64,000 bases of DNA from an uncultured bacterium. Its GTDB lineage: Bacteria > Desulfobacterota_D > UBA1144. This document shows, piece by piece, positions 285-47,233 of this stretch (the stretch's first letter is position 1; each line of letters opens with the position of its first letter). Both the position numbers and the translations under genes were made by a program. Below the pieces are notes generated by a model. That model was not told the origin of the DNA. It saw only the letters and a program-made list of their open reading frames with translations, and made no database searches. The stretch covers positions 66,180-130,179 of the forward strand of contig CAJWZP010000002.1 of NCBI GenBank assembly GCA_913050325.1, written 5' to 3'.

Positions 285-719
285 ATGTTTATGAACAAGG
301 AAGAAATTAAAAAATATTTGCCTCATAGAGAACCTTTTTTATTTGTAGACACTGTTACAAATTTAAATAATGAAAAAAATATAGAAGGGACAGTAACATT
401 CCCTTCTAACTCTTTTTTTTTAGAAGGCCACTTTCCTGAAAGACCAATAGTGCCGGGTGTTATTATTGTAGAGTCTCTGGCTCAATTAGGTGGAATTTTA
501 ATTTATAAATCCTTTGAAAAAGATTTAATTGGTAAGGATCCTGCTCTTATTGCTATTGAAGCAGCCAAATTTAAAAAACCAACATTACCTGAAGAAAAAT
601 TAATAATTAAAGCAGAACTAGTTAAATCTAAGCTAAATATTTTTAAAATTTACGCTGAGGCATACAATGATGATATTTTAGCCGTATCCTCAAATATTAC
701 TGCGACCGTTTTAGCATAA
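285..719 (+). CDS. fabZ: 3-hydroxyacyl-[ACP] dehydratase FabZ
   Basis: 144 aa with the hot-dog fold motifs LPHREPFLFVD...FFxGHFPxxPIVPGVIIVESLAQ. The start may be the second Met at 291. Confidence 0.9.
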   Translation: MFMNKEEIKKYLPHREPFLFVDTVTNLNNEKNIEGTVTFPSNSFFLEGHFPERPIVPGVIIVESLAQLGGILIYKSFEKDLIGKDPALIAIEAAKFKKPTLPEEKLIIKAELVKSKLNIFKIYAEAYNDDILAVSSNITATVLA

Positions 720-1098: not shown

Positions 1099-1156
1099 AA
1101 AAAATATTTTGGTAACAGTTATTGTTACTAGTAAATCAACGAGGTAGATTTAAGTT

Positions 1157-1318
1157 ATGGGAGATAATATAGTAGTAGTCGCTTTAGAGTGTATAGAATG
1201 TTCTGGAAAGAACAAGTATCACTATAGAAAAAATAAAAAAGTTCAAAGAGATAAACTTGAGCTGAAAAAATATTGTAAATATTGTAAGGGACATTTTATA
1301 CATAAAGAAACCAAATAG
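1157..1318 (+). CDS. rpmG: 50S ribosomal protein L33 (zinc-ribbon form), 53 aa; absent from the ORF track because it is under 60 aa
   Basis: Hand translation gives MGDNIVVVALECIECSGKNKYHYRKNKKVQRDKLELKKYCKYCKGHFIHKETK*. It has CxxC...CxxC knuckles and the L33 signature KLELKKYCxxCxxH. There is a GAGG SD 12 nt upstream. Its location upstream of secE-nusG matches the rpmG-secE-nusG arrangement of many bacteria. Confidence 0.8.
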   Translation: MGDNIVVVALECIECSGKNKYHYRKNKKVQRDKLELKKYCKYCKGHFIHKETK

Positions 1319-1389
1319 GGGTGTAGCTCAGTTGGTAGAGCGACGGTCTCCAAAACCGTAGGTCGGGAGTTCGAGACTCTCCACCCCTG
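1317..1389 (+). tRNA. tRNA-Trp (anticodon CCA)
   Basis: D-arm GCTC-AGTTGGTA-GAGC, anticodon stem CGGTC/GACCG-like with loop containing CTCCAAA (anticodon CCA), T-loop GTTCGAGAC. The 5' acceptor overlaps the rpmG stop codon by 2 nt, so the 5' end is +/-2 nt. Confidence 0.85.
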
Positions 1390-1404
1390 GGAGATAATAT
1401 AAAA

Positions 1405-1587
1405 ATGCTAAGTAAATTTTTTAGTGAAGTTAAAAACGAATTAGATAAAATTTCATGGATTGATAAGAGAGAGAATATTAAATCAACCGCTGGTGTGGTA
1501 ATAGTGACAATTGTTTTAGGTATAATTCTTTTGGTAATTGATTTAATTTTTTCAAAATTAACCGAATTCTTTTTAGGTGGTTCATAA
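1405..1587 (+). CDS. secE: preprotein translocase subunit SecE
   Basis: 60 aa with a single C-terminal TM helix (VVIVTIVLGIILLVIDLIF). Sits directly before nusG. Its stop TAA overlaps the nusG ATG (TAATG). Confidence 0.85.
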   Translation: MLSKFFSEVKNELDKISWIDKRENIKSTAGVVIVTIVLGIILLVIDLIFSKLTEFFLGGS

Positions 1588-2144
1588 TGTCTGATAAATG
1601 GTATGTAGTTCATGTTAATACAGGTTCGGAAGACACTGTTAAAAGTTATATTTTTGAGCAAATGAAAATGGATAAGTGTGATGGAATGGTGACAGATGTT
1701 TTAGTTCCCACCGAAACAATTGAAGAACAATTAAAAGGTGGAAAAAAGAAAACGTCTTCTAAGAAATTTTTTCCAGGATATCTTTTGGTTAAGACAGAAT
1801 TAAATGATGAATCTTGGCATTTTTTAAGAAAAATACCAAAAGTCATTGGCTTTGTGGGTGGTAAAGTAAAAGATGGTAAACTCGATCCTGATTCAGTTCC
1901 AAGCGTAGATGAATCTGAAATTAATAAAATGAGGAATAAAATAGAAGAGGGCACTCTCAAACCCACACCTAAAATTATATTTGATAAAGGTGAATCTGTT
2001 AAAGTTATTGAAGGACCTTTTGAAAGTTTTACGGGTATTGTAGAGGAAGTGAAAGTTGAAAAAGGTAAAATTCAGGTTATAGTTGAAATCTTTGGTAGAG
2101 CAACACCAATAGATCTTGATTTTAATCAAGTGGAGAAAATTTAA
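1587..2144 (+). CDS. nusG: transcription termination/antitermination factor NusG
   Basis: 185 aa with an NGN domain ([11 protein letters not shown]) and a C-terminal KOW motif ([21 protein letters not shown]). Confidence 0.9.
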
Positions 2145-2563
2145 TGAAAAAAGTATCTGGAAGTTTAAAACTCCTTTGTGAAGCTGGTAAAGCTTCACCT
2201 GCACCTCCTATTGGACCCGCTCTTGGGCAAAAAGGGGTCAATATTATGGAGTTTTGTAAAGCTTTCAACGCAGAATCTCAAAAACTCGAAGGTACACTGC
2301 CTGTTGTTGTTACGGTATATGAAGATAGATCTTTTTCTTTTGTAATAAAGACTCCTCCTGTGTCATATTTAATAAAAAAAGCAGCAAATATTCAAAAAGG
2401 ATCTAAAACAACTCCAATGGTAAAAGTAGGTAAAATTTCAAAAAATCAAGTTGAAGAAATTGCTAAAACAAAAATGGTAGATTTAAATGCAAATGATATC
2501 TCAAGTGCGATGAAAATCGTTGAGGGAACTGCAAAAAGTATGGGTGTAGAAGTAGAGGTTTAA
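2144..2563 (+). CDS. rplK: 50S ribosomal protein L11
   Basis: 139 aa; [22 protein letters not shown] is the L11 signature. Confidence 0.95.
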
Positions 2564-3286
2564 ATGAGTAAGCTAAAAGAAAAACAAGAAAATATAAAAA
2601 GTAAATTTGATTCTAATAAGTTCTATTCTATTAAAGAAGCTGTAGAAATTATCAAGACTATTGAATCGTCTAAATTTGATGAAACAATAGACATATCAGT
2701 TCAACTAGGAATTGATCCCAAAAAATCAGATGAACAAATTAAGTATGCAATTATGCCACCTCATTCACTTGGTAAGACAATTAAAGTACTTGCAATTTGT
2801 AATGGTGATTATCAAAAAATCGCGACAGATGCCGGCGCCGATATTGTTGGTGGTGAAGAAATTATTGATAAAATTTTGAATGAAAGTTGGGTTGATTTTG
2901 ATGTTGTAATATCAATACCAGAATTAATGCCAAAAGTTGGTAAATTAGGAAAAATCTTGGGCCCCAAAGGAATAATGCCTAGCCCTAAAATGGGAACAGT
3001 AACTAAAGATATTGAAAAAGCTGTAAAAGAGTCTAAGCAGGGTAGGATTGAGATTAAAAATGATAAACTTGGTTTAGCAAATTTTCCTGCAGCTAAAAAA
3101 TCTTTTGATAGTTCTTCAATATTAGATAATATTTATCACTTAATGAATTCTCTTAATTCATCAAAACCATCATCATCTAAAGGGGTTTTTATGAAAAAGG
3201 TTACAATTTCATCAACCATGGGTCCTGGTTTGAAAATTGATTTATCTTCGTTAAAAGATGAAATTAAAAGTGGAGTACAACAATAA
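2564..3286 (+). CDS. rplA: 50S ribosomal protein L1
   Basis: 240 aa with L1 family motifs (ETIDISVQLGIDPKKSDEQI..., GKLGKILGPKGIMPSPK). Confidence 0.95.
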   Translation: MSKLKEKQENIKSKFDSNKFYSIKEAVEIIKTIESSKFDETIDISVQLGIDPKKSDEQIKYAIMPPHSLGKTIKVLAICNGDYQKIATDAGADIVGGEEIIDKILNESWVDFDVVISIPELMPKVGKLGKILGPKGIMPSPKMGTVTKDIEKAVKESKQGRIEIKNDKLGLANFPAAKKSFDSSSILDNIYHLMNSLNSSKPSSSKGVFMKKVTISSTMGPGLKIDLSSLKDEIKSGVQQ

Positions 3287-3801
3287 TGTTAAGTAAGGAA
3301 AATAAAAAAGATATAGTTTTAAATTATTCTAAAGAGCTCTCTGACTCACCTTCTTTTCTTTTGATTAATTACGCAGGTTCTAAAGTTAAAGAGTTTGAGA
3401 GTTTAAGAAAAGCTTTTAATAAAATTAACACTAAAATTTCTGTTGTTAAAAATACTTTACTTCAAAAAGCAACAGAAAATACAGATTTTAAAGAGCATTT
3501 CTCTTCATTAAAAGGTGAAACAGCTATAGCACTTTTAAACGAAAATTATGTAGAAGCTGCTAAATCTTTCATGGATATTAAAAAAGAAAGCCCTGTGTTT
3601 GAAATAAAGTTTGGCTATATTGATGGAAATGTTATAACAGTAAGTGAATTAGAGAAAATATCAAAGTTGCCATCAAAAGAAGTTTTAATTAGCCAATTCT
3701 TATCTGTCTTGAATCAGCCTATAGCTAAATTCGCATATGCGGCGAAATCAATACCCTCAAGTTTAATAAATGTATTAAATAACTTGAAAGATAAAAAATA
3801 A
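3286..3801 (+). CDS. rplJ: 50S ribosomal protein L10
   Basis: 171 aa; position between rplA and rplL; L10-like N-terminal region. Confidence 0.9.
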   Translation: MLSKENKKDIVLNYSKELSDSPSFLLINYAGSKVKEFESLRKAFNKINTKISVVKNTLLQKATENTDFKEHFSSLKGETAIALLNENYVEAAKSFMDIKKESPVFEIKFGYIDGNVITVSELEKISKLPSKEVLISQFLSVLNQPIAKFAYAAKSIPSSLINVLNNLKDKK

Positions 3802-3837
3802 CCATATATAATACGAGTTCAATATTCGGAGGAAATT

Positions 3838-4224
3838 ATGCCTGAAGTTTCAAGAGAAGACGTTATAAGTTATCTAGAAAATGCAAATTTACTGGAAATT
3901 TCTGAATTAGTTAAGGACATTGAAGAAAAATTTGGTGTCCAAGCGGCTGCACCTGTTGCTGTTGCTGCAGCTCCAGCTGGTTCAGCACCTGCGGAAGGTT
4001 CTGCTGAAGAAAAAACAGAGTTTGATGTAACTCTTAGCGATGCTGGTGGCGAGAAAATTAAAGTTATCAAGATAGTGAGAGAAGTCACTGCACTTGGGCT
4101 AAAAGAAGCTAAAGAGCTTGTTGAATCTGCCCCTAAGCCCCTTAAACAAGGTGTTAAAAAGGAAGAAGCAGAAGAAATCAAGAAAAAACTAGAAGATGTT
4201 GGCGCTAAAGTAGAGTTAGCTTAG
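3838..4224 (+). CDS. rplL: 50S ribosomal protein L7/L12
   Basis: 128 aa with an Ala-rich hinge ([24 protein letters not shown]) and a conserved C-terminal domain ([55 protein letters not shown]). Confidence 0.95.
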
Positions 4225-4260: not shown

Positions 4261-7200
4261 TTGCATAAAGAAAATATTCTTTTAACAAAACGTAGAAAAA
4301 GTTTTAGAGATAGACTAAAGACAGTTACTGATATTCCAGACTTGTTAAGTGTTCAAAAAGAATCATTTAACTTGCTTATACAGGCTGACGTCGATCCTGA
4401 TAAAAGAGAAAATATTGGCTTAGAAAAGGTGTTTAGGGCATCTTTTCCTATTGATGATTATCAGGGTAGGGCTTCTTTAAGTTATGTTTCATATCGTGTT
4501 GAGGAACCGAAATATAGTATAGCTGAGTGTAAACTCAAAGGTTACAATTATCAGTCAGCAATTCATGTAAAGTTTGACCTTTGCACCTGGGAATATGATT
4601 TAGATGAGAACGAAAATCCTATTCTCGAAACCAAAAGAGTTAAAGATATCAAACAACAAGAAGTTTTCTTTGGTGAAATTCCAATAATGACTCCAAATGG
4701 TGCTTTTGTAATTAATGGTACTGAGCGTGTTATTGTGAATCAACTTCATAGATCACCTGGTGTTTTTTTTGATGCTCAAAGAGGTTCTAAAGACCTAACA
4801 TCTTCTGGTAAAACTAATTTTACTGCTAGAATCGTTCCACAAGATGGCAGATGGCTAGATTTTGAATTTGATTCTAAAGATATTCTTTTTGTTAGGATTG
4901 ATAGAAAAAAGAAATTTCATTCGACACTTCTGATGTTAGCTTTAGGAGAAAATGCCAATACTATTTTAGATACCTTTTATAAAAAAGAATCAATTTCGTT
5001 TGATGGCAAGGGTTTTTCTAAAGATATTAATTTTGATTTATTACCATACCAAAGAGCCTCCCAAGATATAAGTGATAAAAATGGAAATCTTATTATAAGA
5101 GAGAATAGAAGATTTAATGAAAGAATTATAGAAAAAATTAACAGTTCTAAAATGAATAAATTGGAAGTACCAGATGAAGAACTACTTGGGTCTTATTTAG
5201 TTAAAAAAATAGATGGTACATTTGATCCTGAGGATGAAATTCAGTCCAATTTAATAGAAGAAATTACAGAAGAAACAATTGAATTAATTAGAGATAATAA
5301 TATTGATAAATTTGAAATATATTATGTTGATAATAACTTTTTTACCAACTCACTTGTTCTTACCATAAATGAAATGATATCTAAAACTAAAGTTTTAACA
5401 AAAGAACAAGCGGTTGCAGAAATTTATAAAAAATTTAGACCTACCGACCCTCCAACGCCAAAAGTTGCCATGACATTTTTTGATAATATGTTTTTTAGTG
5501 AAGATACCTATAGGTTATCAAGAGTTGGAAGAATGAAAATAAATTATAAGTTAAATCATGGAGTATCAAATTCAAAATTGTGTTTAGATCCTCGAGACAT
5601 TCTAGAGTCTTTTAAATATCTTTTACTCTTAAAATCAGGTAGGGGTGAAGTTGATGATATTGATCACTTAGGTAATAGACGAGTAAGAACAGTTGGAGAG
5701 TTAATTGAGGATAGATTTTTTGTAGGTCTTGAAAGACTTTCAAAAAGTATTAAAGAAAAATTAATGTATAACGTCGTTGATGAAATGTTCCCAGCCGATA
5801 TTGTAATACCAAAAAGTGTAACTTCTGTTGTTAAAGAGTTTTTTGCAACCGGTCAACTTTCCCAATTTATGGATCAAACAAATCCACTTTCTGAAATAAC
5901 ACATAAAAGAAGATTGAGTGCTTTAGGGCCCGGGGGTCTGACAAGAGAACGAGCGGGATTTGAAGTTAGAGATGTTCATTCATCTCATTATGGTCGTATC
6001 TGTCCTATTGAGACACCAGAGGGTCCGAATATTGGATTAATATCAAGTTTAAGCACATATTCTAAAATTAATGAACATGGATTCATTCTAACTCCGTATA
6101 GAGAGGTTAATGATTGTAAAGTAACCAATAAAATCAAATATCTTAATGCACTAGAAGAAGAGGATTATATAATAGCCCAAGCTAATGCGGAATTAAATGA
6201 AGATAATATCTTTTTAAATGATTTGGTTGATGCAAGAAATGCTGGTGAATTTGAAGTTGTTTCAAAAGAGGATGTTCAATTAATGGATGTTTCTCCAGCT
6301 CAATTAGTATCAGTGTCTTCATCTTTAATTCCATTTCTTGAGCATGACGATGCTAACAGAGCCTTGATGGGTTCAAATATGCAAAGGCAAGCTGTACCTT
6401 TGTTAAAATCTTCTGCTCCTTTAGTTGGAACTGGTTTTGAAAAAAATATTTCTCGCGACTCTGGAGTTAATGTTATTGCCAATAATGATGGAACTGTTGA
6501 TTATGTTGATTCTTCAAAAATTGTTATCTTAAAAGATGATAAGAATTCAAATGAAGTATCTGATATATATGACTTAATCAAATTTCAAAGATCAAATCAG
6601 AATACATGTTGGAATCAAAAACCGATAGTCAAAAAAGGCCAGAAAATTAAAAAAGGGGATATAATAGCTGATGGTCCGTCAACTGAATATGGTGAATTAG
6701 CACTTGGAAAAAATATAATGATAGCCTTTATGGCATGGGGTGGATATAATTTTGAGGATGCTATTTTAATAAGCGAGAGACTCTCAAAAGAGGATACTTT
6801 TACATCTGTCCATATTGAAGAATTTGAATGTATCTCCAGAGAAACAAAACTAGGTAAAGAGGAAATTACAAGAGACATTCCAAATGTTAATGAGGATAAC
6901 CTTTCTTTTCTTGACAAAGATGGAATAATCCAAATTGGAGCTGAGGTAAAACCAAATGACATATTGGTTGGAAAAATATCTCCAAAGGGTGAGACACAAT
7001 TATCTCCTGAGGAGAGATTGTTAAGAGCAATTTTTGGTGACAAAGCTGGTGATGTAAAAGATACTTCTTTAAGAGTTCCACCGGGAGTAAACGGAATAGT
7101 ATTAGATGTTAAAACACTTGTTTCAAGATTAGGTGATAAACAGGATCAGTCAAGATCAGGTTCTCCTGAAGTAATTGAATTAAAAGCTCAGCTAGAAAAA

Positions 7201-8421
7201 GAAGTTGATTATATTAAATCTGAAGCCCGTTCAAAATTAAAAAATATTTTTGTTGGAAAAACATCTATAAACGATGTTAGATCAAGTAGGAAAATTGTTC
7301 TTAAAAAAACTAAAGAAATTACTGAAGAGTCTTTTGCATTGGTTCCTTATGATAAAATTATTACAATTGAATTTAATGAAAGATCAAATTTTTTAAATGA
7401 GATTGAATCAATTCTAAAGATTTGTGATGAAAAAATTGAAAGTGTTTCTAGCAGAATCAATGTTGAAATAGATAAATTATCACAACCAGATGATTTACAG
7501 CCTGGTGTTTTAAAAGTTATTAAAGTATATGTCGCTGTTAAGAGAAAACACCAAGTTGGTGATAAAATGGCTGGTAGACATGGAAATAAAGGAGTTGTTT
7601 CAAGGGTCCTTCCTGTTGAAGATATGCCTTATCTTCCAGATGGTACGCCTGTTGATATGGTTTTAAATCCTTTGGGAGTTCCATCCAGAATGAATGTAGG
7701 ACAAATATTAGAGACACACTTAGGTTTAGCGGCTAAGTCATTAGGTAATCAGATAAATCATGAATTAAATGATAAGTTTCCAAATACGGTAAAATTAAGA
7801 GAACTGATAAATGGTTTTTATAAAAATGATATTGATTACATAAATAATGTAAAAAAATTAAATGATGAAGATTTGATAGATTTAGCCAAACGACTTTCAG
7901 AAGGAGTACCTGTTGAGACTCCTATTTTTGAGGGTGTAAAAGAATCCGATATTCGTTCTTTGTTGGATGAAAATCATTTTCCACAAGATGGTAAGCTCAC
8001 ATTGTTTAATGGTGAAACTGGTGAGCCTTTTGATCAAAGAGTTACCGTTGGTATTATGTATATGATTAAATTACATCATTTGGTCGAAGAAAAGATTCAT
8101 GCCAGAGCTATTGGACCTTACTCACTTGTCACACAGCAACCTCTTGGTGGTAAGTCTCATTTTGGTGGTCAAAGATTAGGGGAAATGGAAGTTTGGGCGC
8201 TTGAAGCTTACGGCGCAGCTAATACTCTTCAAGAATTTTTGACTGTGAAATCGGATGATGTAATTGGTAGAACACGACTTTTTGATTCTATTGTAAAAAA
8301 TAAATTGAAGTTTGAGCCTGGAATTCCTGAATCTTTTAATGTTTTAACTAACGAATTGAAATCTTTGGGGCTAAACATTGAAATGATGGATAAAGGAGAT
8401 GAAGTTGATGCTGAAAGCTAA
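4261..8421 (+). CDS. rpoB: DNA-directed RNA polymerase subunit beta (TTG start)
   Basis: 1386 aa with rpoB hallmarks (GEIPIMTPNGAFVINGTERVIVNQLHRSPGVFFD; RRLSALGPGGLTRERAGFEVRDVHSSHYGRICPIETPEGPNIGLI; GEMEVWALEAYGAA). AGGTG SD 5 nt before TTG. Confidence 0.97.
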   Translation: MHKENILLTKRRKSFRDRLKTVTDIPDLLSVQKESFNLLIQADVDPDKRENIGLEKVFRASFPIDDYQGRASLSYVSYRVEEPKYSIAECKLKGYNYQSAIHVKFDLCTWEYDLDENENPILETKRVKDIKQQEVFFGEIPIMTPNGAFVINGTERVIVNQLHRSPGVFFDAQRGSKDLTSSGKTNFTARIVPQDGRWLDFEFDSKDILFVRIDRKKKFHSTLLMLALGENANTILDTFYKKESISFDGKGFSKDINFDLLPYQRASQDISDKNGNLIIRENRRFNERIIEKINSSKMNKLEVPDEELLGSYLVKKIDGTFDPEDEIQSNLIEEITEETIELIRDNNIDKFEIYYVDNNFFTNSLVLTINEMISKTKVLTKEQAVAEIYKKFRPTDPPTPKVAMTFFDNMFFSEDTYRLSRVGRMKINYKLNHGVSNSKLCLDPRDILESFKYLLLLKSGRGEVDDIDHLGNRRVRTVGELIEDRFFVGLERLSKSIKEKLMYNVVDEMFPADIVIPKSVTSVVKEFFATGQLSQFMDQTNPLSEITHKRRLSALGPGGLTRERAGFEVRDVHSSHYGRICPIETPEGPNIGLISSLSTYSKINEHGFILTPYREVNDCKVTNKIKYLNALEEEDYIIAQANAELNEDNIFLNDLVDARNAGEFEVVSKEDVQLMDVSPAQLVSVSSSLIPFLEHDDANRALMGSNMQRQAVPLLKSSAPLVGTGFEKNISRDSGVNVIANNDGTVDYVDSSKIVILKDDKNSNEVSDIYDLIKFQRSNQNTCWNQKPIVKKGQKIKKGDIIADGPSTEYGELALGKNIMIAFMAWGGYNFEDAILISERLSKEDTFTSVHIEEFECISRETKLGKEEITRDIPNVNEDNLSFLDKDGIIQIGAEVKPNDILVGKISPKGETQLSPEERLLRAIFGDKAGDVKDTSLRVPPGVNGIVLDVKTLVSRLGDKQDQSRSGSPEVIELKAQLEKEVDYIKSEARSKLKNIFVGKTSINDVRSSRKIVLKKTKEITEESFALVPYDKIITIEFNERSNFLNEIESILKICDEKIESVSSRINVEIDKLSQPDDLQPGVLKVIKVYVAVKRKHQVGDKMAGRHGNKGVVSRVLPVEDMPYLPDGTPVDMVLNPLGVPSRMNVGQILETHLGLAAKSLGNQINHELNDKFPNTVKLRELINGFYKNDIDYINNVKKLNDEDLIDLAKRLSEGVPVETPIFEGVKESDIRSLLDENHFPQDGKLTLFNGETGEPFDQRVTVGIMYMIKLHHLVEEKIHARAIGPYSLVTQQPLGGKSHFGGQRLGEMEVWALEAYGAANTLQEFLTVKSDDVIGRTRLFDSIVKNKLKFEPGIPESFNVLTNELKSLGLNIEMMDKGDEVDAES

Positions 8422-29306: not shown

Positions 29307-31082
29307 ATGTGTGGAATATACTCATCATTATCAACAAATAAAATATTATGTTCAGATTTTTTAATCTCTTTAAAAGAACTCGAATATAGAGGATACGATT
29401 CAGCGGGTCTAGTAACTCTTGATAAAAATAAAAAATATAAATCTTATAAAACACTTTCAAAAATTGATGATTTGAAATTAAAAATATCAAAAGAGGAGTC
29501 TTCGAGTTTACTTATTGGTCATACCCGGTGGGCAACACACGGAAAACCAAACATTAAAAACTGTCATCCTCATATCATTGAAAACTTATCTATTGTCCAT
29601 AATGGTGTTGTTGAGAATTATGATGATTTAAAAAAAAATAAGATCTTTAAAAATGTAAAATTTAAAACAGATACTGATACAGAAATGATTCTTTTATTAA
29701 TTTATAATTATTGTAAATCTAATAGCTTTATTAACGCCGTAAAAAAAACAATTAAATTGATTAAAGGGTCAAATGCATTTGTATGTTCAAATATAGGAAA
29801 GGATATCAATGAATTAGCAGCATACAAAAATAACACGCCACTTTACTTTGGGATAAAAAATAATGGTGAAAAAGTTTTTTCCTCTGATGTAAATGCAATG
29901 TCGAATTCACTAAAAGGATATTATTATTTAGATAATAACGATATAATTCATATTACCAATAAAAATACAGCTCTTTACAATAAGAAAAATAAAAGAATAG
30001 TTTTAAAAAAAATTGTTGATTCAAATTTTAAAAAACCTAAAGTTGTCTCAAGTTGTTATACATATTCTGAAATTAAAGATCAAAAAAAAATAATTTCAAC
30101 TTATGGTAAAAATATTCAAAAAATCTATAAAGTGGTTAGAAAAATTAAAAAGCCTAATGAGATTAATATTATTGGGTGTGGATCTTCATATAATGCGGGG
30201 TTATTGGCAAAAGCTTTTTTAGAAAAAAACTCAAATATTCCTACATCCGTTTACCGTCCTTCCGAATTTAATTTTTTTTTAAATAATAAAAATAAATTAT
30301 TTATATTTATTTCTCAAAGTGGTGAAACCGCTGATATTTGCTCACTGATTGAATCCAAGAAGGAATTCTTTTCAAACTCATTATCAATAGTTAATAATGA
30401 TGATTCAAGATTAGTAAGAGAATCAAAATATAATATTAATCTTAATGTAGGTTTAGAAAGAGGAGTTGCAGCTACTAAAACTTTCTCCTCTCAAATATTA
30501 GTTTTGAATATAATATCAAAAATTTTATCTAAAGATAATAATAATTTAGTATTTCCATCAAGCTCTGTGATTAATAAATTATTTTCTTATGAAAAAGAAA
30601 TCATAAAGTTATCAAAAAAATATTCAAAATTTAAAAACCTTTTTGTTTTAGGTAGGAATTATAATTTCCCTATAGCGTGTGAAGCAGCTTTAAAAATAAA
30701 AGAAATATCATATATTCATGCAGAAGGAGCTCCATCATCTGAAATCAAACATGGACCTATTGCATTATTTGATAATAAATTCCCTGTTATTTTTTTAGTA
30801 TCGAATAAAAAAGAGACGATACATAGTGAAATTTCTAGCTTAAATGAAGTTATTTCTCGAACGAATAATATTTTTCTGATTGCTCCCGATACGGTTGTAA
30901 AAAAACTCGATCCAAAAACTTTATCAAAAATTGACGTGATAGCAGTTCCAGATTTTCAAAATGATATGGCTCCTATATTATATTTAATTATTTTGCAGCT
31001 TTTTTCATACCATTTAGCAAAAAGTAAAAAACTTAACATAGATCAACCAAGAAATTTAGCCAAGGTTGTCACAGTAGAATGA
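29307..31082 (+). CDS. glmS: glutamine--fructose-6-phosphate aminotransferase (isomerizing)
   Basis: 591 aa with an N-terminal nucleophile MCGI, two SIS domains, and the C-terminal ...VVTVE typical of GlmS. Confidence 0.93.
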   Translation: MCGIYSSLSTNKILCSDFLISLKELEYRGYDSAGLVTLDKNKKYKSYKTLSKIDDLKLKISKEESSSLLIGHTRWATHGKPNIKNCHPHIIENLSIVHNGVVENYDDLKKNKIFKNVKFKTDTDTEMILLLIYNYCKSNSFINAVKKTIKLIKGSNAFVCSNIGKDINELAAYKNNTPLYFGIKNNGEKVFSSDVNAMSNSLKGYYYLDNNDIIHITNKNTALYNKKNKRIVLKKIVDSNFKKPKVVSSCYTYSEIKDQKKIISTYGKNIQKIYKVVRKIKKPNEINIIGCGSSYNAGLLAKAFLEKNSNIPTSVYRPSEFNFFLNNKNKLFIFISQSGETADICSLIESKKEFFSNSLSIVNNDDSRLVRESKYNINLNVGLERGVAATKTFSSQILVLNIISKILSKDNNNLVFPSSSVINKLFSYEKEIIKLSKKYSKFKNLFVLGRNYNFPIACEAALKIKEISYIHAEGAPSSEIKHGPIALFDNKFPVIFLVSNKKETIHSEISSLNEVISRTNNIFLIAPDTVVKKLDPKTLSKIDVIAVPDFQNDMAPILYLIILQLFSYHLAKSKKLNIDQPRNLAKVVTVE

Positions 31083-31111
31083 GCTTACCTGGACAGTGTG
31101 CATATTTTTGA

Positions 31112-31276
31112 TTATTTTCTATAAATATATGACAGATTCACGATTGGTGCTAAAAACCAAACTGATGTTGAAGTCCATAGAATCCAACTTTTAGGCAAAC
31201 CATGACTAATAAAAAATCCAGCACACATTATTAATAACAATATATTCATTGAAATTGCTAATTTTTTTATGTTCAT
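31112..31276 (-). CDS. small hypothetical membrane protein (54 aa, two predicted TM helices); absent from the ORF track
   Basis: Hand translation of the minus strand gives MNIKKLAISMNILLLIMCAGFFISHGLPKSWILWTSTSVWFLAPIVNLSYIYRK*. A strong SD AAGGAGA (complement of 31284-31290) lies 7 nt upstream of the ATG at 31276. Stop TAA at 31112-31114. Confidence 0.45.
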   Translation of the reverse strand: MNIKKLAISMNILLLIMCAGFFISHGLPKSWILWTSTSVWFLAPIVNLSYIYRK

Positions 31277-31376
31277 TGTTGTTCTCCTTATTAAATACTA
31301 TTTACTAAATAATTTTATTTCTTAATATGTAAATATAGCTAATTTACAGTGAAATATATTCTTATGGAATAAAGTA

Positions 31377-31404
31377 TTGTCATTTTAACTATTTAGGGTA
31401 AATT
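31377..31404 (+). promoter_or_regulatory. candidate sigma70-type promoter for the proteorhodopsin gene
   Basis: -35 TTGTCA at 31377-31382, a 16-nt spacer, and -10 TAAATT at 31399-31404, about 30 nt before the ATG. SD AGGGAGG at 31421-31427. Confidence 0.3.
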
Positions 31405-31435
31405 CATCTTTAACTTAATTAGGGAGGTCTTTTAC

Positions 31436-32194
31436 ATGTCAAAGTATGTAAATTACTTTTTACTTTCCGCAATTATTGCTTGCATGCCGCTAGTATCATT
31501 CGCTGGAACAAATTTAGCCCCTAATGATCCTGTTGGAATTTCTTTCTGGATTATTTCAGTCGCAATGGTAGCCGCTACTGCTTTCTTCTTCCTAGAGTCT
31601 CTAAGAGTTCAAGGTAAGTTTAGAACATCATTAGTAGTTGGTGGTCTTATTTGTTTGGTTGCAGGCGTACACTATTTCTATATGAGAGAAGTGTGGGCTT
31701 CTACAGGTTCATCTCCAACTGTATTCAGATACGTTGACTGGATTGTAACCGTTCCACTTCAAATGGTTGAATTCTATCTCATATTAGCTGCTGTTACAGC
31801 TGTATCACTTGGTGTCTTCTGGAGACTTCTAATCGGTACTGTTGTTATGGTTGTTGCAGGTTATTTAGGCGAAGCTGGCTTCATTGATACAACAATTGGT
31901 TTTGTTGTAGGAATGGGTGGTTGGGCTTATATCCTGTATGAGATCTTCTCAGGCGAAGCAAGTGCTAGTGCTTCTAAAGCTGCACCTGCTGTTCAATCCG
32001 CATTTAATACAATGAAATGGATTGTAACCATTGGCTGGGCTATCTATCCTTTAGGTTATTTCTTAGGATATATGACCGGTGGTGGTGCTGATGCAGATAC
32101 TCTAAATATAGTTTATAACGTTGCAGATTTTATAAATAAAATTGGTTTTTGTTTAGCAATATGGGCTGCTGCTACAACACAAGCTGATGCTTAA
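31436..32194 (+). CDS. proteorhodopsin (light-driven proton pump), blue-tuned variant
   Basis: 252 aa with a signal peptide plus 7 TM helices. Has the PR-specific His (GVHYFYMR), proton acceptor Asp and donor Glu in RYVDWIVTVPLQMVEFYLIL, and the Schiff-base Lys in ADFINKIGF. The spectral-tuning position is Gln (PLQMVEF). Confidence 0.93.
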   Translation: MSKYVNYFLLSAIIACMPLVSFAGTNLAPNDPVGISFWIISVAMVAATAFFFLESLRVQGKFRTSLVVGGLICLVAGVHYFYMREVWASTGSSPTVFRYVDWIVTVPLQMVEFYLILAAVTAVSLGVFWRLLIGTVVMVVAGYLGEAGFIDTTIGFVVGMGGWAYILYEIFSGEASASASKAAPAVQSAFNTMKWIVTIGWAIYPLGYFLGYMTGGGADADTLNIVYNVADFINKIGFCLAIWAAATTQADA

Positions 32195-34602: not shown

Positions 34603-35702
34603 GTTCAAGTAAAACAATTTCTATCATTGGGGGAGGTTGTGCAGGATATAGTCTTTTAAATAAATTAAAAAATGTAAGTAATATTGAAATTGATTTTTTC
34701 ATCGGAAAGAATCAAGGAATAAATAATTTCTGGGGATATTGGGAATATGATAAAGATATTCCAGATAATATTTTGAGTGGCAAATGGAATAAGTGGAAAA
34801 TTTCAACTCAAGATGGTGAAAAATTTTTTGAATCCTCTAGTCATCCATATTGTGTAACTACAAGACATAATTGGATTTCATATTGTAAGCAGAATACTAA
34901 TAAAAAAAATATAAGAATATTAAAAGAGGATATAATGGAAATTAATAATAAAATTTATAATAAAAATAATGATGAAATTATTTCTGATTTTATTTTTGAT
35001 TCTAGATATACAAATAAATCTAAAAATATTTTCTTACAGCATTTTAAAGGTTTTTTAATTAAAACTGAAACTGATTGTTTTGATGATGAAGTCTTAACTT
35101 TAATGGATTTCAGATGTGATCAATCTAAAGGTATGCAGTTTGTATATGTTTTACCATTTACAAAAAAAATTGCATTGATTGAGCCAACGATTTATTCGTA
35201 CAACATTGAAGACGAAATCTATTATAAAAAAACTTTAGAATCATATCTTTATGATATATATAAAATAAAAAAATATAATATTATTAAGACTGAAAAAGGA
35301 TCAATTCCATTGGAACACAATAATATTAAAAAAGGACCTTATTTTAATATTGGTATCAATGGTAATGTTAATCGAAAATCATCTGGATATACATTCACTT
35401 TTATTCAAAAACAATCAATTTTAATAAAAAATTTCTTCTTGAATATAAGTAATGATTTGTCATTAAAAGTGCAGTCAAATTTTTTTAATTTTTTAGATGA
35501 AATTTTTCTAGATGTTATTAAAAGAAAACCCAGCATTGGACCTTTAATTTTTTATTCTTTCGGAAAGTCTTTTAATGGTAATGAGATGTCAGATTTTATG
35601 AATAACAGAATTAATTTTATTCCTTTTATGAAAATGTTATTTAACTTACCATTTAAGGAATTTATTAAATCTTTCATCAGGTGTTTATTTAATTATGGAT
35701 AG
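34599..35702 (+). CDS. crtY: lycopene beta-cyclase (CrtY type)
   Basis: 367 aa with an N-terminal dinucleotide-binding site (SIIGGGCAGYSL) and CrtY-family architecture. Overlaps crtB by 4 nt. Confidence 0.8.
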   Translation: MSSSKTISIIGGGCAGYSLLNKLKNVSNIEIDFFIGKNQGINNFWGYWEYDKDIPDNILSGKWNKWKISTQDGEKFFESSSHPYCVTTRHNWISYCKQNTNKKNIRILKEDIMEINNKIYNKNNDEIISDFIFDSRYTNKSKNIFLQHFKGFLIKTETDCFDDEVLTLMDFRCDQSKGMQFVYVLPFTKKIALIEPTIYSYNIEDEIYYKKTLESYLYDIYKIKKYNIIKTEKGSIPLEHNNIKKGPYFNIGINGNVNRKSSGYTFTFIQKQSILIKNFFLNISNDLSLKVQSNFFNFLDEIFLDVIKRKPSIGPLIFYSFGKSFNGNEMSDFMNNRINFIPFMKMLFNLPFKEFIKSFIRCLFNYG

Positions 35703-36492
35703 CATCACATTATATTCTCTGATACTTATAATTCTAGTAGGCCTTCCACATGGAGCCCTTGATGGTGCAGTTAGTTTGTGTCTTGAAATAAATAATTCGT
35801 TAAGAAATATAATTATTTTTATAAGTGTTTATATCTTAATAGCTTTTATAGTAGTTATTTTATGGTTGAACTTTTCCGAACTGGCTTTGATATTTTTTCT
35901 AATAATTAGCATCATGCATTTTGGTATTGGTGATTTAGAATGGGAAAGTGGTTTTTCAAAATATATTTTGGGATTCTTTATTGGCGGGTTGGTAGTTGTT
36001 GGTACCTCTCTATTAAATAGAGATGATGTTAATAATATCTTCTTATACTTATCTGAACGTACAGACATGGTTTGGTATTTTATTGAATACTCTTCATATT
36101 TATGGATTCTATCGGTACCATATTTCATCAATAAAATTGATAAATTTTCTACTCAATTTTTAATAAAGATTTTTTTTATTTTTATATTTGTAGTTTTTTT
36201 ACCACCCTTATTAGCATTTTCTTTCTATTTTTGCTTTATACATACTATTAATCATTTTGGAAGAATAGTTCCTCAACTTAAAAACAAAATGACAAATAAG
36301 AAGATTTTTTATACTTTTTTACTTTTTACTCTATCTAGTTGGCTAATAGGATTTATTGTATATGAATTATTTAAGGATTCTTTTGATTTTGTTGAACTTA
36401 CGTATAAGATTCTTTTTATCGGATTGGCAGCTTTAACGGTACCACATATGATTTTAATTGATTTTTATTTTAGGCCCCTTAAGAAAGTATGA
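35695..36492 (+). CDS. blh: beta-carotene 15,15'-dioxygenase (Brp/Blh family), the retinal-forming enzyme
   Basis: 265 aa polytopic membrane protein with the Blh signature N-terminus (LILIILVGLPHGALDG) and conserved His residues. Immediately downstream of crtY with an 8-nt overlap. Confidence 0.82.
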   Translation: MDSITLYSLILIILVGLPHGALDGAVSLCLEINNSLRNIIIFISVYILIAFIVVILWLNFSELALIFFLIISIMHFGIGDLEWESGFSKYILGFFIGGLVVVGTSLLNRDDVNNIFLYLSERTDMVWYFIEYSSYLWILSVPYFINKIDKFSTQFLIKIFFIFIFVVFLPPLLAFSFYFCFIHTINHFGRIVPQLKNKMTNKKIFYTFLLFTLSSWLIGFIVYELFKDSFDFVELTYKILFIGLAALTVPHMILIDFYFRPLKKV

Positions 36493-36765: not shown

Positions 36766-38046
36766 TTGAGAGTTTTAGTAGTTGGATCAGGTGGACGTGA
36801 ACATGCAATTTGTTGGGGTATAGCTAAAAGTAATAAAGTAAAAAAAATATATTGTGCACCTGGAAATGCTGGTATTAGTGAATTTGCTGAAAATGTAGAA
36901 ATTCCTGCTGATAACATTAATAAACTTTTAGAATTTGCATTAAAAGAAAAAATAGATTTTACAATTGTTGGACCTGAACAACCTTTATCGCTTGGTATTG
37001 TCGATCTGTTCAGAGATAATAAGCTTTTGATTTTTGGTCCTAGTAAGTTTGCATCTCAATTAGAGTCTAGTAAAGAATTTTCGAAATTATTTATGGAACG
37101 AAATAATATTCCGACTGCATCTTTTAAATCTTTTACATCATATGATGAAGCAAAAGCATATTTAAATGAATCAAATTTACCAATTGTAATCAAAGCAGAT
37201 GGTTTAGCATCTGGAAAGGGTGTTAAGGTTTGTATGGAAATGGAGGAAGCAAATTCTTTTTTAAAAGAAATAATGTTAGACAAAATTTTTTCTAAATCTG
37301 GAGAAAAAGTTGTTATTGAAAGTTTTCTAGAAGGAGAGGAGGCATCTTTCTTTGTATTTTCAGATGGAGAAAAAATACTTTGTTTAGACTCTTCACAAGA
37401 TCATAAAAGATTACTTGATGATGATAAAGGACCTAACACGGGTGGTATGGGTGCATATTCTCCGGCACCAATCATAGATGAAGAAACTAAAGAAAAAATA
37501 TTAAATGAAATTATTAATCCAGTTTTTGAGGCATTTAAAAAAGAAAATTTTGAATATACTGGAATTCTATATGTTGGTTTAATGATTAATAATAAAAAGC
37601 CTAGTGTTGTAGAATTTAATTGTAGATTTGGCGATCCTGAAACTCAACCTTTACTTTTTAGGATTGAATCAGATATCTTTGATCTGTTCTACCAGACAGC
37701 CTTAAAACAAATTGATCAGTACCAATTGATTTGGAAAAGAAAAACAGCTATTTCAGTTGTTTTAGCCTCATTAGGATATCCTATGAATCCAGAAACTGGA
37801 GGAGAGATTAAAGAATTAGAATCTTTTAAAAATACTGATGATGAATTTGTATTTCATGCTGGTACTAAATTTTTAGATAATAAAGTTGTTATTTCAGGTG
37901 GAAGAGTTTTAAATATAACTGCATTAGGACACGATCTTGAAGATGCTATTAATAAAGTTTATGACTCTATAAATAAAGTAGAATTAAAAAACTTTCATTA
38001 CAGAAATGATATAGGTAAAAAGGGCCTTGTGAAAAAAACCAAATAG
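36766..38046 (+). CDS. purD: phosphoribosylamine--glycine ligase (TTG start)
   Basis: 426 aa; MRVLVVGSGGREHAICW is the PurD N-terminus, and it has an ATP-grasp domain. AAGGAG SD 8 nt upstream of the TTG. Confidence 0.92.
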   Translation: MRVLVVGSGGREHAICWGIAKSNKVKKIYCAPGNAGISEFAENVEIPADNINKLLEFALKEKIDFTIVGPEQPLSLGIVDLFRDNKLLIFGPSKFASQLESSKEFSKLFMERNNIPTASFKSFTSYDEAKAYLNESNLPIVIKADGLASGKGVKVCMEMEEANSFLKEIMLDKIFSKSGEKVVIESFLEGEEASFFVFSDGEKILCLDSSQDHKRLLDDDKGPNTGGMGAYSPAPIIDEETKEKILNEIINPVFEAFKKENFEYTGILYVGLMINNKKPSVVEFNCRFGDPETQPLLFRIESDIFDLFYQTALKQIDQYQLIWKRKTAISVVLASLGYPMNPETGGEIKELESFKNTDDEFVFHAGTKFLDNKVVISGGRVLNITALGHDLEDAINKVYDSINKVELKNFHYRNDIGKKGLVKKTK

Positions 38047-46780: not shown

Positions 46781-46980
46781 TGAAAATGTCTGAAATTAAA
46801 AAATTAGATACTATAGAAATTGAGAAGAAAATAATTGAACTTAAAGATTCAATTTTAAAATCAAAAATTTCTAAGTTAAATCAAGGGGATTTTGATTCAA
46901 ATACTTTTTCTAAAATTAGAAAAGATATTGCAAGGTGTTTAACTGAACTTAATTCCAGAAGAGGAGATGAAAATGTCTAG
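46780..46980 (+). CDS. rpmC: 50S ribosomal protein L29
   Basis: 66 aa; position between rplP and rpsQ; helical L29-like sequence. Confidence 0.88.
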   Translation: MKMSEIKKLDTIEIEKKIIELKDSILKSKISKLNQGDFDSNTFSKIRKDIARCLTELNSRRGDENV

Positions 46981-47233
46981 AGGTAGAATGAGAGAATTAA
47001 AAGGTGTTGTTATTAAAAATTCATCTGATAAAACAGTGACAGTTCAAACTGAGACATCAAATAAAAATAGAATATATAATAAAATTGTTGTTATGAAGAA
47101 GAAGTTCCATGTTCATGATGAGAAAAACGAAGCTAAAGTTGGTGATGAAATTAGAGCAATTGAAACAAAACCAATAAGCAAAAGTAAAAGATGGAAGTTG
47201 GTAGAAGTTATTAATAAAGGAGAAGCCTTATGA
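46967..47233 (+). CDS. rpsQ: 30S ribosomal protein S17
   Basis: S17 OB fold ([17 protein letters not shown]...[31 protein letters not shown]). The start may be the ATG at 46973. Confidence 0.92.

Follow-up and report, generated by a model that had tools for sequence, protein, structure and literature searches.

The window, by which we mean the whole stretch of 64,000 nucleotides of bacterial DNA that was analysed (30% GC), carries a small gene on its minus strand at positions 31112..31276, with an ATG start, 54 codons and a TAA stop. Its product, MNIKKLAISMNILLLIMCAGFFISHGLPKSWILWTSTSVWFLAPIVNLSYIYRK, is identical to the translation given for this ORF in the preliminary description of the region. 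The small gene is convergent with glmS (29307..31082, plus strand; Pfam GATase_6/7 and two SIS domains) and divergent from the gene for proteorhodopsin (PR; 31436..32194, plus strand; Pfam Bac_rhodopsin, E = 1.9e-44). The distances reported earlier stand: 353 nt separate the glmS stop at 31082 from the PR start at 31436, and the divergent starts of the small gene and PR are 159 nt apart (31277..31435). The two convergent stops are separated by 29 nt (31083..31111), in which no terminator-like hairpin was found. A Shine-Dalgarno (SD) sequence, AAGGAGA, can be read from the minus strand at 31283..31289, 6 nt ahead of the ATG (gap 31277-31282); the element had been recognised before, with its position (31284-31290) and its distance from the start (7 nt) given slightly wrongly.

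Downstream of PR come crtI and then, with the Pfam matches given in brackets, crtB (SQS_PSY), crtY (Lycopene_cycl) and blh (BCD; 35695-36492), extending up to position 36492, and after them purD (GARS; 36766-38046), so that the photosystem cassette is flanked by two housekeeping genes, glmS and purD. No crtE was found within the cassette. Aligned to the standard GPR numbering, the PR motif RYVDWIVTVPLQMVEF gives D97/T101/E108 and Gln105, as in a proton pump of the blue-absorbing type. The protein is approximately 60% identical to PRs of Pelagibacteraceae and 71% identical to those of SAR116, values that make the SAR11 origin implied by the preliminary description doubtful; the host is probably not a member of SAR11. 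RpoB from the window (4261-8418) can be aligned over its full length with that of proteobacteria at 1430 bits, as compared with about 1160 bits or less for other bacterial groups, and a cluster of five tRNA genes (784-1389) is located upstream of the probable nusG-rplKAJL-rpoBC region. The labels 'bacterium SP78' and 'Candidatus Hydrogenedens sp. AG-470-J09' occur among the three nearest genomes, the latter of which looks doubtful.

The 353-nt spacer had been called the largest non-coding stretch of the window, which is essentially right: with the tRNA cluster and the rpmC/rpsQ gap set aside, no longer stretch is devoid of ORFs of 60 aa or more. Where ORFs of 100 aa or more are considered, only two gaps exceed it, and they hold genes, namely the five tRNA genes (720-1586) and rpmC with rpsQ (46781-47229). 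For an estimate of what chance would produce, 5000 first-order Markov sequences of 353 nt each were simulated with the composition of the spacer or of the window. An ATG-initiated ORF of at least 54 codons appeared in 5–7% of them, and one that was also preceded by an SD core 5–12 nt upstream in 0.3–0.5%. Taken on their own, the ORF and its SD are thus only moderately unusual, and it is the comparative evidence that decides on coding status.

Conservation of the small gene in related genomes

A scan with the PR protein, at one genome per species, yielded three close relatives with PRs 96%, 91% and 91% identical to that of the window, the next match being SAR116 with 71%. These three genomes, two metagenome contigs found via the small protein (together L001-L005) and the window constitute the clade considered below. 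The frame of the small gene was recovered by tblastn in all five of these diverged lineages (67–96% amino acid identity, E values from 1e-22 to 1e-33), and it has kept the same position in each. Between the clade genomes carrying it, glmU is merely about 60% identical and glmS 63–85%. In the DNA alignment of L001-L005 with the window the ORF is gapless and its stop codon is in register, and both flanks are rich in indels. Substitutions follow the reading frame: dN/dS (Nei-Gojobori) is 0.08–0.27 in frame versus 0.5–1.6, i.e. about 1, in the two other frames, and the excess of synonymous changes is significant (Fisher p from 4e-7 to 1e-3). A purine-rich, SD-like element precedes the small gene in every lineage, as GGAGAA in L004 and L002, as AAGGGG in L005, and as GGAGGA in L001 and L003, where it is followed by a TTG start; the 71-aa model of the gene caller in the two latter genomes begins at a spurious upstream codon.

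Absence of the frame from related genomes, or occupation of the spacer by a non-coding RNA, had been named in the preliminary description as grounds for abandoning the gene. The frame is kept in every related genome found, and no Rfam family occupies the spacer between glmS and PR. At gathering thresholds, Rfam detected tRNAs only in the whole window; at E ≤ 10, the region 30900-31600 produced three chance-level matches to eukaryotic snoRNA/miRNA families and no antisense RNA family. Because nothing beyond tRNAs and these chance-level matches was obtained, the reading of the spacer as a non-coding RNA was dropped. Judging from the alignments, the small ORF is almost certainly a real protein-coding gene, and very probably one for a two-helix membrane protein. 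The result shows a frame of fewer than 60 amino acids, overlooked on account of a length cut-off, to be a real gene under purifying selection.

The regions on either side of the gene are far less stable. Since 159 nt are all that separates the divergent starts in the window, this spacer must hold both promoters. Its length in the clade ranges from 109 nt (L005) to 177 nt (L003), and conservation across lineages is restricted to the ~60 nt nearest PR, comprising a PR promoter-like site and the PR leader; the remainder is 30–60% identical and contains indels. The putative PR promoter, TTGTCA-N16-TAAATT, was located by a promoter scan at 31377..31404 on the plus strand; L004 and L005 have kept it, and a similar TTGTTA...TAGATT is present in L003. 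On the minus strand upstream of the small gene, the consensus scan revealed no promoter-like site with at least 9 of 12 matches. A candidate −10 box of the small gene, TATATT, may be placed at 31332..31337 (minus strand), where the core ATATTT is invariant in all six aligned sequences.

The gap on the glmS side is variable among the relatives and shrinks to 8 nt in L003. It is a variable insertion spot, at the edge of the PR-carotenoid cassette that faces glmS; in many bacteria, insertions are frequent in the 3′ flank of glmS. L002 has in this gap an ORF for a 124-aa protein of the Endonuclease_7 family (289-663, minus strand; PF02945, E = 6e-7), and L005 has an ORF for an acidic, Asp/Asn-rich protein of 81 aa that carries a signal peptide and matches nothing in Pfam (5476-5721, plus strand).

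Comparison of the window with L004 revealed a tract of ~96% nucleotide identity over ~375 bp (window 31110-31485, L004 5677-6050) that takes in exactly the small gene and the spacer together with the initial ~50 nt of PR. Outside the tract, the adjacent 3′ end of glmS is 58–75% identical and the rest of PR approximately 80%. The opposite pattern is seen with L003, in which the 3′ half of glmS (80–100%) and the 5′ end of PR (90–94%) are well conserved and the spacer is only 46–60% identical. Such a mosaic points clearly to recombination at the locus and does not imply a shared function.

A family of two-helix mini-proteins

An exhaustive HMMER search of 1.84 billion representative proteins returned 39 clusters (at 50% identity) with E ≤ 1e-3, 22 of them with E ≤ 1e-10, and a profile search of a set of 5.8 billion proteins returned at least 181 clusters (at 90% identity), with E values down to 9e-27. 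All 181 clusters have a core of 54–66 aa and no Pfam domain, and are unnamed or listed as 'hypothetical' or 'uncharacterized membrane protein'; many of the longer models in the family are gene-caller extensions or read-through. A metagenome scan had returned only 5 loci because the N-terminal peptides with which it was queried are less conserved, and the exhaustive HMMER search is more informative in this respect.

The window protein aligns end to end, over residues 1–54, with 46 members at 44–93% identity (profiles A4/A5). The family consensus reads MxLKxxAIxLNxLLxxLCxxxFIGHGLPxSxILWxSAxLWFVAPxVNLxYIxK. Both N11 and N47 are invariant in alignment A4, N47 being nearly so in A5, and L14, G26, P28, L33, W34, S36, W40 and P44 are invariant or nearly so in the two; the window protein carries all ten residues. 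Members occur on marine contigs ranging from 26 to 52% GC, so the conservation is at the level of protein and not of nucleotides. By its end-to-end similarity, the window protein belongs to a hitherto undescribed 'GHGxP' family of two-helix mini-proteins that is widespread in marine bacterioplankton and lies outside the curated libraries.

With the 23-member alignment of the family, no above-threshold match was found in Pfam, NCBIfam, PHROGs, PADLOC or the sequences of the PDB. The best Pfam match of the window protein, to DUF3784 (PF12650), extends over residues 2–51 with E = 0.034; its 14.8 bits compare with a gathering threshold of 28.1 bits, and it is shared by three of the 23 members, in each case with the C-terminal half of the 94-position model only. 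This similarity appears to reflect hydrophobic composition and not membership. In PHROGs and PADLOC the window protein itself had no match, the best values among the members being E = 0.007 (two of 23) and E = 0.069 (one of 23), respectively, and no relative was detected on IMG/VR viral contigs scanned with the family profile. Marine small proteins and gene families of unknown function have been compiled in large catalogues (PMC12856327, PMC10849945). No publication on a GHGxP mini-protein family, nor on a small gene adjoining PR, came up in our literature search.

The gene had previously been described as unannotated. This holds with regard to the 60-aa ORF track, but the identical protein (P0160) has been predicted on at least 69 public contigs (NCBI, JGI, ENA, Logan). 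In the ten of these contexts that were displayed, all from ENA marine-metagenome assemblies and mostly from Tara Oceans, the order is invariably glmU-glmS-small gene-PR-crtI-crtB; the host is common in Tara Oceans surface metagenomes. The variant in L004, 96% identical, is NCBI NSW73930.1, 'hypothetical protein CL660_003965 [bacterium]'. The gene model is thus already public as a hypothetical protein, one whose family is uncharacterised. What is added here is the definition of that family, with at least 181 clusters, paired intramembrane Asn residues and the GHGxP turn, which no curated library covers, and with it a concrete entry in the catalogue of bacterial small membrane proteins.

Predicted structure and possible mode of action

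AlphaFold2, run with a 47-sequence alignment, predicted a helical hairpin with helices at residues 2–25 and 31–53 (mean pLDDT 89.1, pTM 0.62). Hydropathy is in agreement with two helices, the first strongly hydrophobic and the second Trp-rich and less hydrophobic. Both analyses bear out the two hydrophobic helices of the preliminary description, and its characterisation of the product as small-membrane-protein-like is supported in that the locus has a two-helix small membrane protein gene with its own SD. A Foldseek search against the PDB gave no match below E = 2.5, an outcome to be expected of a bare hairpin. One peptide of the 54-residue protein, LAISMNILLLIMCAGFFISHGLPK, is a candidate for proteomic detection.

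The G-H-G-x-P turn between the helices is short and nearly invariant across the family. Since Lys/Arg residues are conserved at both termini and the turn is not consistently basic, the positive-inside rule suggests that the topology is probably N-in/C-in, with the termini directed towards the cytoplasm and the GHGxP turn towards the periplasm. N11 and N47 are located ~17 and ~19 residues, respectively, from the centre of the turn; being nearly equidistant from it, they should face each other near the cytoplasmic leaflet, and the pair would either staple the hairpin or form a polar docking site. We picture the small protein as a 54-residue, inner-membrane helical hairpin that would be encoded by a stand-alone gene of the flexible genome, perhaps brought in as cargo, and whose intramembrane polar contacts would serve self-association or docking onto, and modulation of, a larger membrane or periplasmic partner. 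By analogy, it most likely acts as other bacterial mini membrane proteins do, via such contacts.

AcrZ, KdpF, CydX and MgtS are one-helix modulators in the inner membrane whose partners are encoded nearby or are known from experiment. The window protein resembles them in being shorter than 60 aa, nearly entirely transmembrane, equipped with its own SD and missed by ORF-length cut-offs, and it presumably also works by binding other membrane proteins; it differs from them in having two helices and in the lack of sequence similarity. Pmp3/YqaE proteins (UPF0057, PF01679; about 52–57 aa) are of the same size class and likewise form a helical hairpin, but their conserved motifs differ, and membership was rejected, as PF01679 was not matched at E ≤ 1 by any of the 23 members. 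To all appearances, then, the protein is an ordinary conserved hypothetical small membrane protein.

Neighbourhoods of the family outside the clade

Outside the clade, 11 loci were inspected out of the at least 181 clusters, and they represent about seven kinds of neighbourhood (L087-L096, L107 and L108). The gene belongs to an island after rplT-pheST-tRNA in L088, L089 and L091; it is situated between two 177-aa paralogs, beside a tRNA gene, in L087, beside znuABC and an integrase remnant in L090, and beside an oligopeptide permease in L107. In L092, L094 and L108 it lies within arrays of paralogous secreted proteins, and the arrangement of L094 recurs on two short contigs, L095 and L096. L093 is an integrase island in which genes for a phage-type integrase, a BLUF blue-light sensor and a SOUL haem-binding protein occur within 2 kb (1120-4018, on a contig of 44% GC); the proximity of the BLUF and SOUL genes is probably coincidental.

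The arrays (L088 4573-6278; L092 528-7942; L094 3560-6842; L108 3630-10252), on contigs of 26–28% GC, contain up to seven paralogous proteins of 142–169 aa with signal peptides, conserved Cys residues and no Pfam match, 20–56% identical to one another. Genes for guanylate cyclase, GFA and SpoU recur in their vicinity. In L094, L095, L096 and L108 the start of the mini-protein gene overlaps the stop of the gene for a secreted, Cys-containing paralog of ~145–156 aa (TGATG/TAATG), and in L088 and L092 the mini-protein start is also coupled to the stop of a secreted paralog. This overlap suggests a periplasmic partner in the AT-rich lineages.

It could further be taken to mean that the window protein belongs to the flexible genome as a mini membrane protein of toxin or immunity type, which we consider rather unlikely. 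In one version, it would be the immunity or anchoring partner of the coupled secreted ~150-aa proteins and an orphan in the window, where, as in the close loci, tblastn detected no such paralog; in the other, it would be a type I-like membrane toxin. A place in the flexible genome would be in line with the tRNA genes, integrase genes and integrase remnants that adjoin other members, with the coupled position inside arrays of secreted proteins and with the variability of the glmS-proximal flank. A toxin of type I would have a single transmembrane helix, usually in fewer than 60 aa, and a cognate antisense or overlapping small RNA; here two helices are predicted with high confidence, the SD is strong and exposed, and Rfam detected no antisense RNA family in 30900-31600, where an undescribed antisense RNA or read-through from the convergent glmS may still occur. 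Smallness and hydrophobicity are shared with type I toxins and pinholins, and some pinholins are two-helix proteins, but the neighbours glmS and PR provide no phage or lysis context. The assignment to phage holins or pinholins was rejected, as there was no PHROG match for the window protein and no relative on IMG/VR contigs, and so was that to two-TM effectors of defence systems, as there was no PADLOC match. Purifying selection across very different genomes, moreover, equally fits a housekeeping-like role.

Relation to proteorhodopsin

Adjacency of the small gene to PR is confined to the clade of the window. No rhodopsin gene was present within 5–6 kb at the 11 other loci of the family, and no relative of the small gene was found at 77 other PR loci (SAR116, SAR92, Pelagibacteraceae and others). 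Within the clade, the entire order glmU-glmS-small gene-PR-crtI-crtB-crtY-blh-purD is conserved, and that the small gene has stayed next to PR is therefore not independent evidence of a link between the two. The association with PR put forward in the preliminary description thus comes down to an adjacency in one clade. Shared divergent regulation, proposed at the same time, fares no better, given that the spacer beyond the PR promoter is 30–60% identical, has indels and varies from 109 to 177 nt in length; no shared operator-like motif was seen in it. Taken as a whole, the statement that the ORF is a genuine membrane-hairpin gene of a marine family, with a function that is not specific to PR, seems to us likely to be correct. 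It would remove a tempting, unsupported inference, i.e. that the small gene is part of the PR photosystem.

The same locus can be read as encoding a clade-specific accessory or co-regulated partner of PR, expressed from back-to-back promoters and binding to the PR oligomer with an effect on assembly, stability or pumping; were this so, proteorhodopsins would have their first dedicated small accessory protein. PR and the small protein alike are integral to the membrane, the gene diverges from PR at 109–177 nt in every clade member, and the ~96% tract shared by the window and L004, which runs through the small gene and the spacer into the 5′ end of PR between flanks of 58–80%, is compatible with an exchange of the small gene and PR as a unit. 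Nonetheless, we regard this reading as quite improbable: recurring adjacency, by which a rhodopsin partner might be recognised, was absent from the 11 family loci and from the 77 PR loci, the latter including the closest outside PRs (those of SAR116, 71%), and neither the non-independent adjacency within the clade nor the unconserved spacer, with its shifting length, lends it weight. Very doubtful is the related proposal that a mini-protein of a pan-marine family, captured beside the PR-carotenoid cassette in this abundant proteobacterial clade and expressed back-to-back with it, serves as a small subunit or modulator of the blue-tuned pump or of membrane energisation in general.

A parallel exists in haloarchaea, where brp, bat and brz adjoin bop; brp encodes a beta-carotene-cleaving enzyme, and bat and brz encode regulators. 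The homologue of brp in the window is blh. The two arrangements are alike in that a gene diverges from a microbial rhodopsin gene across a common intergenic control region, any regulatory link in the window being hypothetical. They are unlike in that none of the haloarchaeal genes codes for a two-TM mini-protein.

Small reading frames at SAR116 proteorhodopsin loci

The PR loci of SAR116 provided a negative control. They, too, have hydrophobic ORFs, of 47–54 aa, divergent from PR at ~144 nt. As genes, these ORFs are spurious: indels between genomes break their frame, and they overlap a conserved non-coding block with a palindrome. AT-rich spacers hence readily give rise to 'membrane-like' ORFs, and the tests passed by the ORF of the window discriminate between such frames and a gene. 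That the latter is also a chance ORF in an AT-rich spacer, conserved because it overlies an element, regulatory or RNA, that belongs to glmS or PR, might be argued from these spurious frames, from the 5–7% of random 353-nt sequences of matched composition with an ATG ORF of that length and from the consensus scan without a promoter-like site for the small gene, but it is extremely improbable and effectively refuted by the gapless alignment, with no indels inside the ORF and many outside, by frame-specific substitutions (dN/dS 0.08–0.27) and by protein homologues with E values to 1e-26 at unrelated loci in genomes of up to 52% GC, Rfam likewise giving no match.

The SAR116 palindrome, TGATAATTGTTATCA, is positioned ~190–205 nt upstream of the PR start in L006-L022 (alignment A6, columns 43–57), within a highly conserved non-coding region. 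No similar palindrome was found upstream of the PR of the window. The SAR116 sequence resembles a Fur box, TGATAATCATTATCA, with agreement at 13 of 15 positions.
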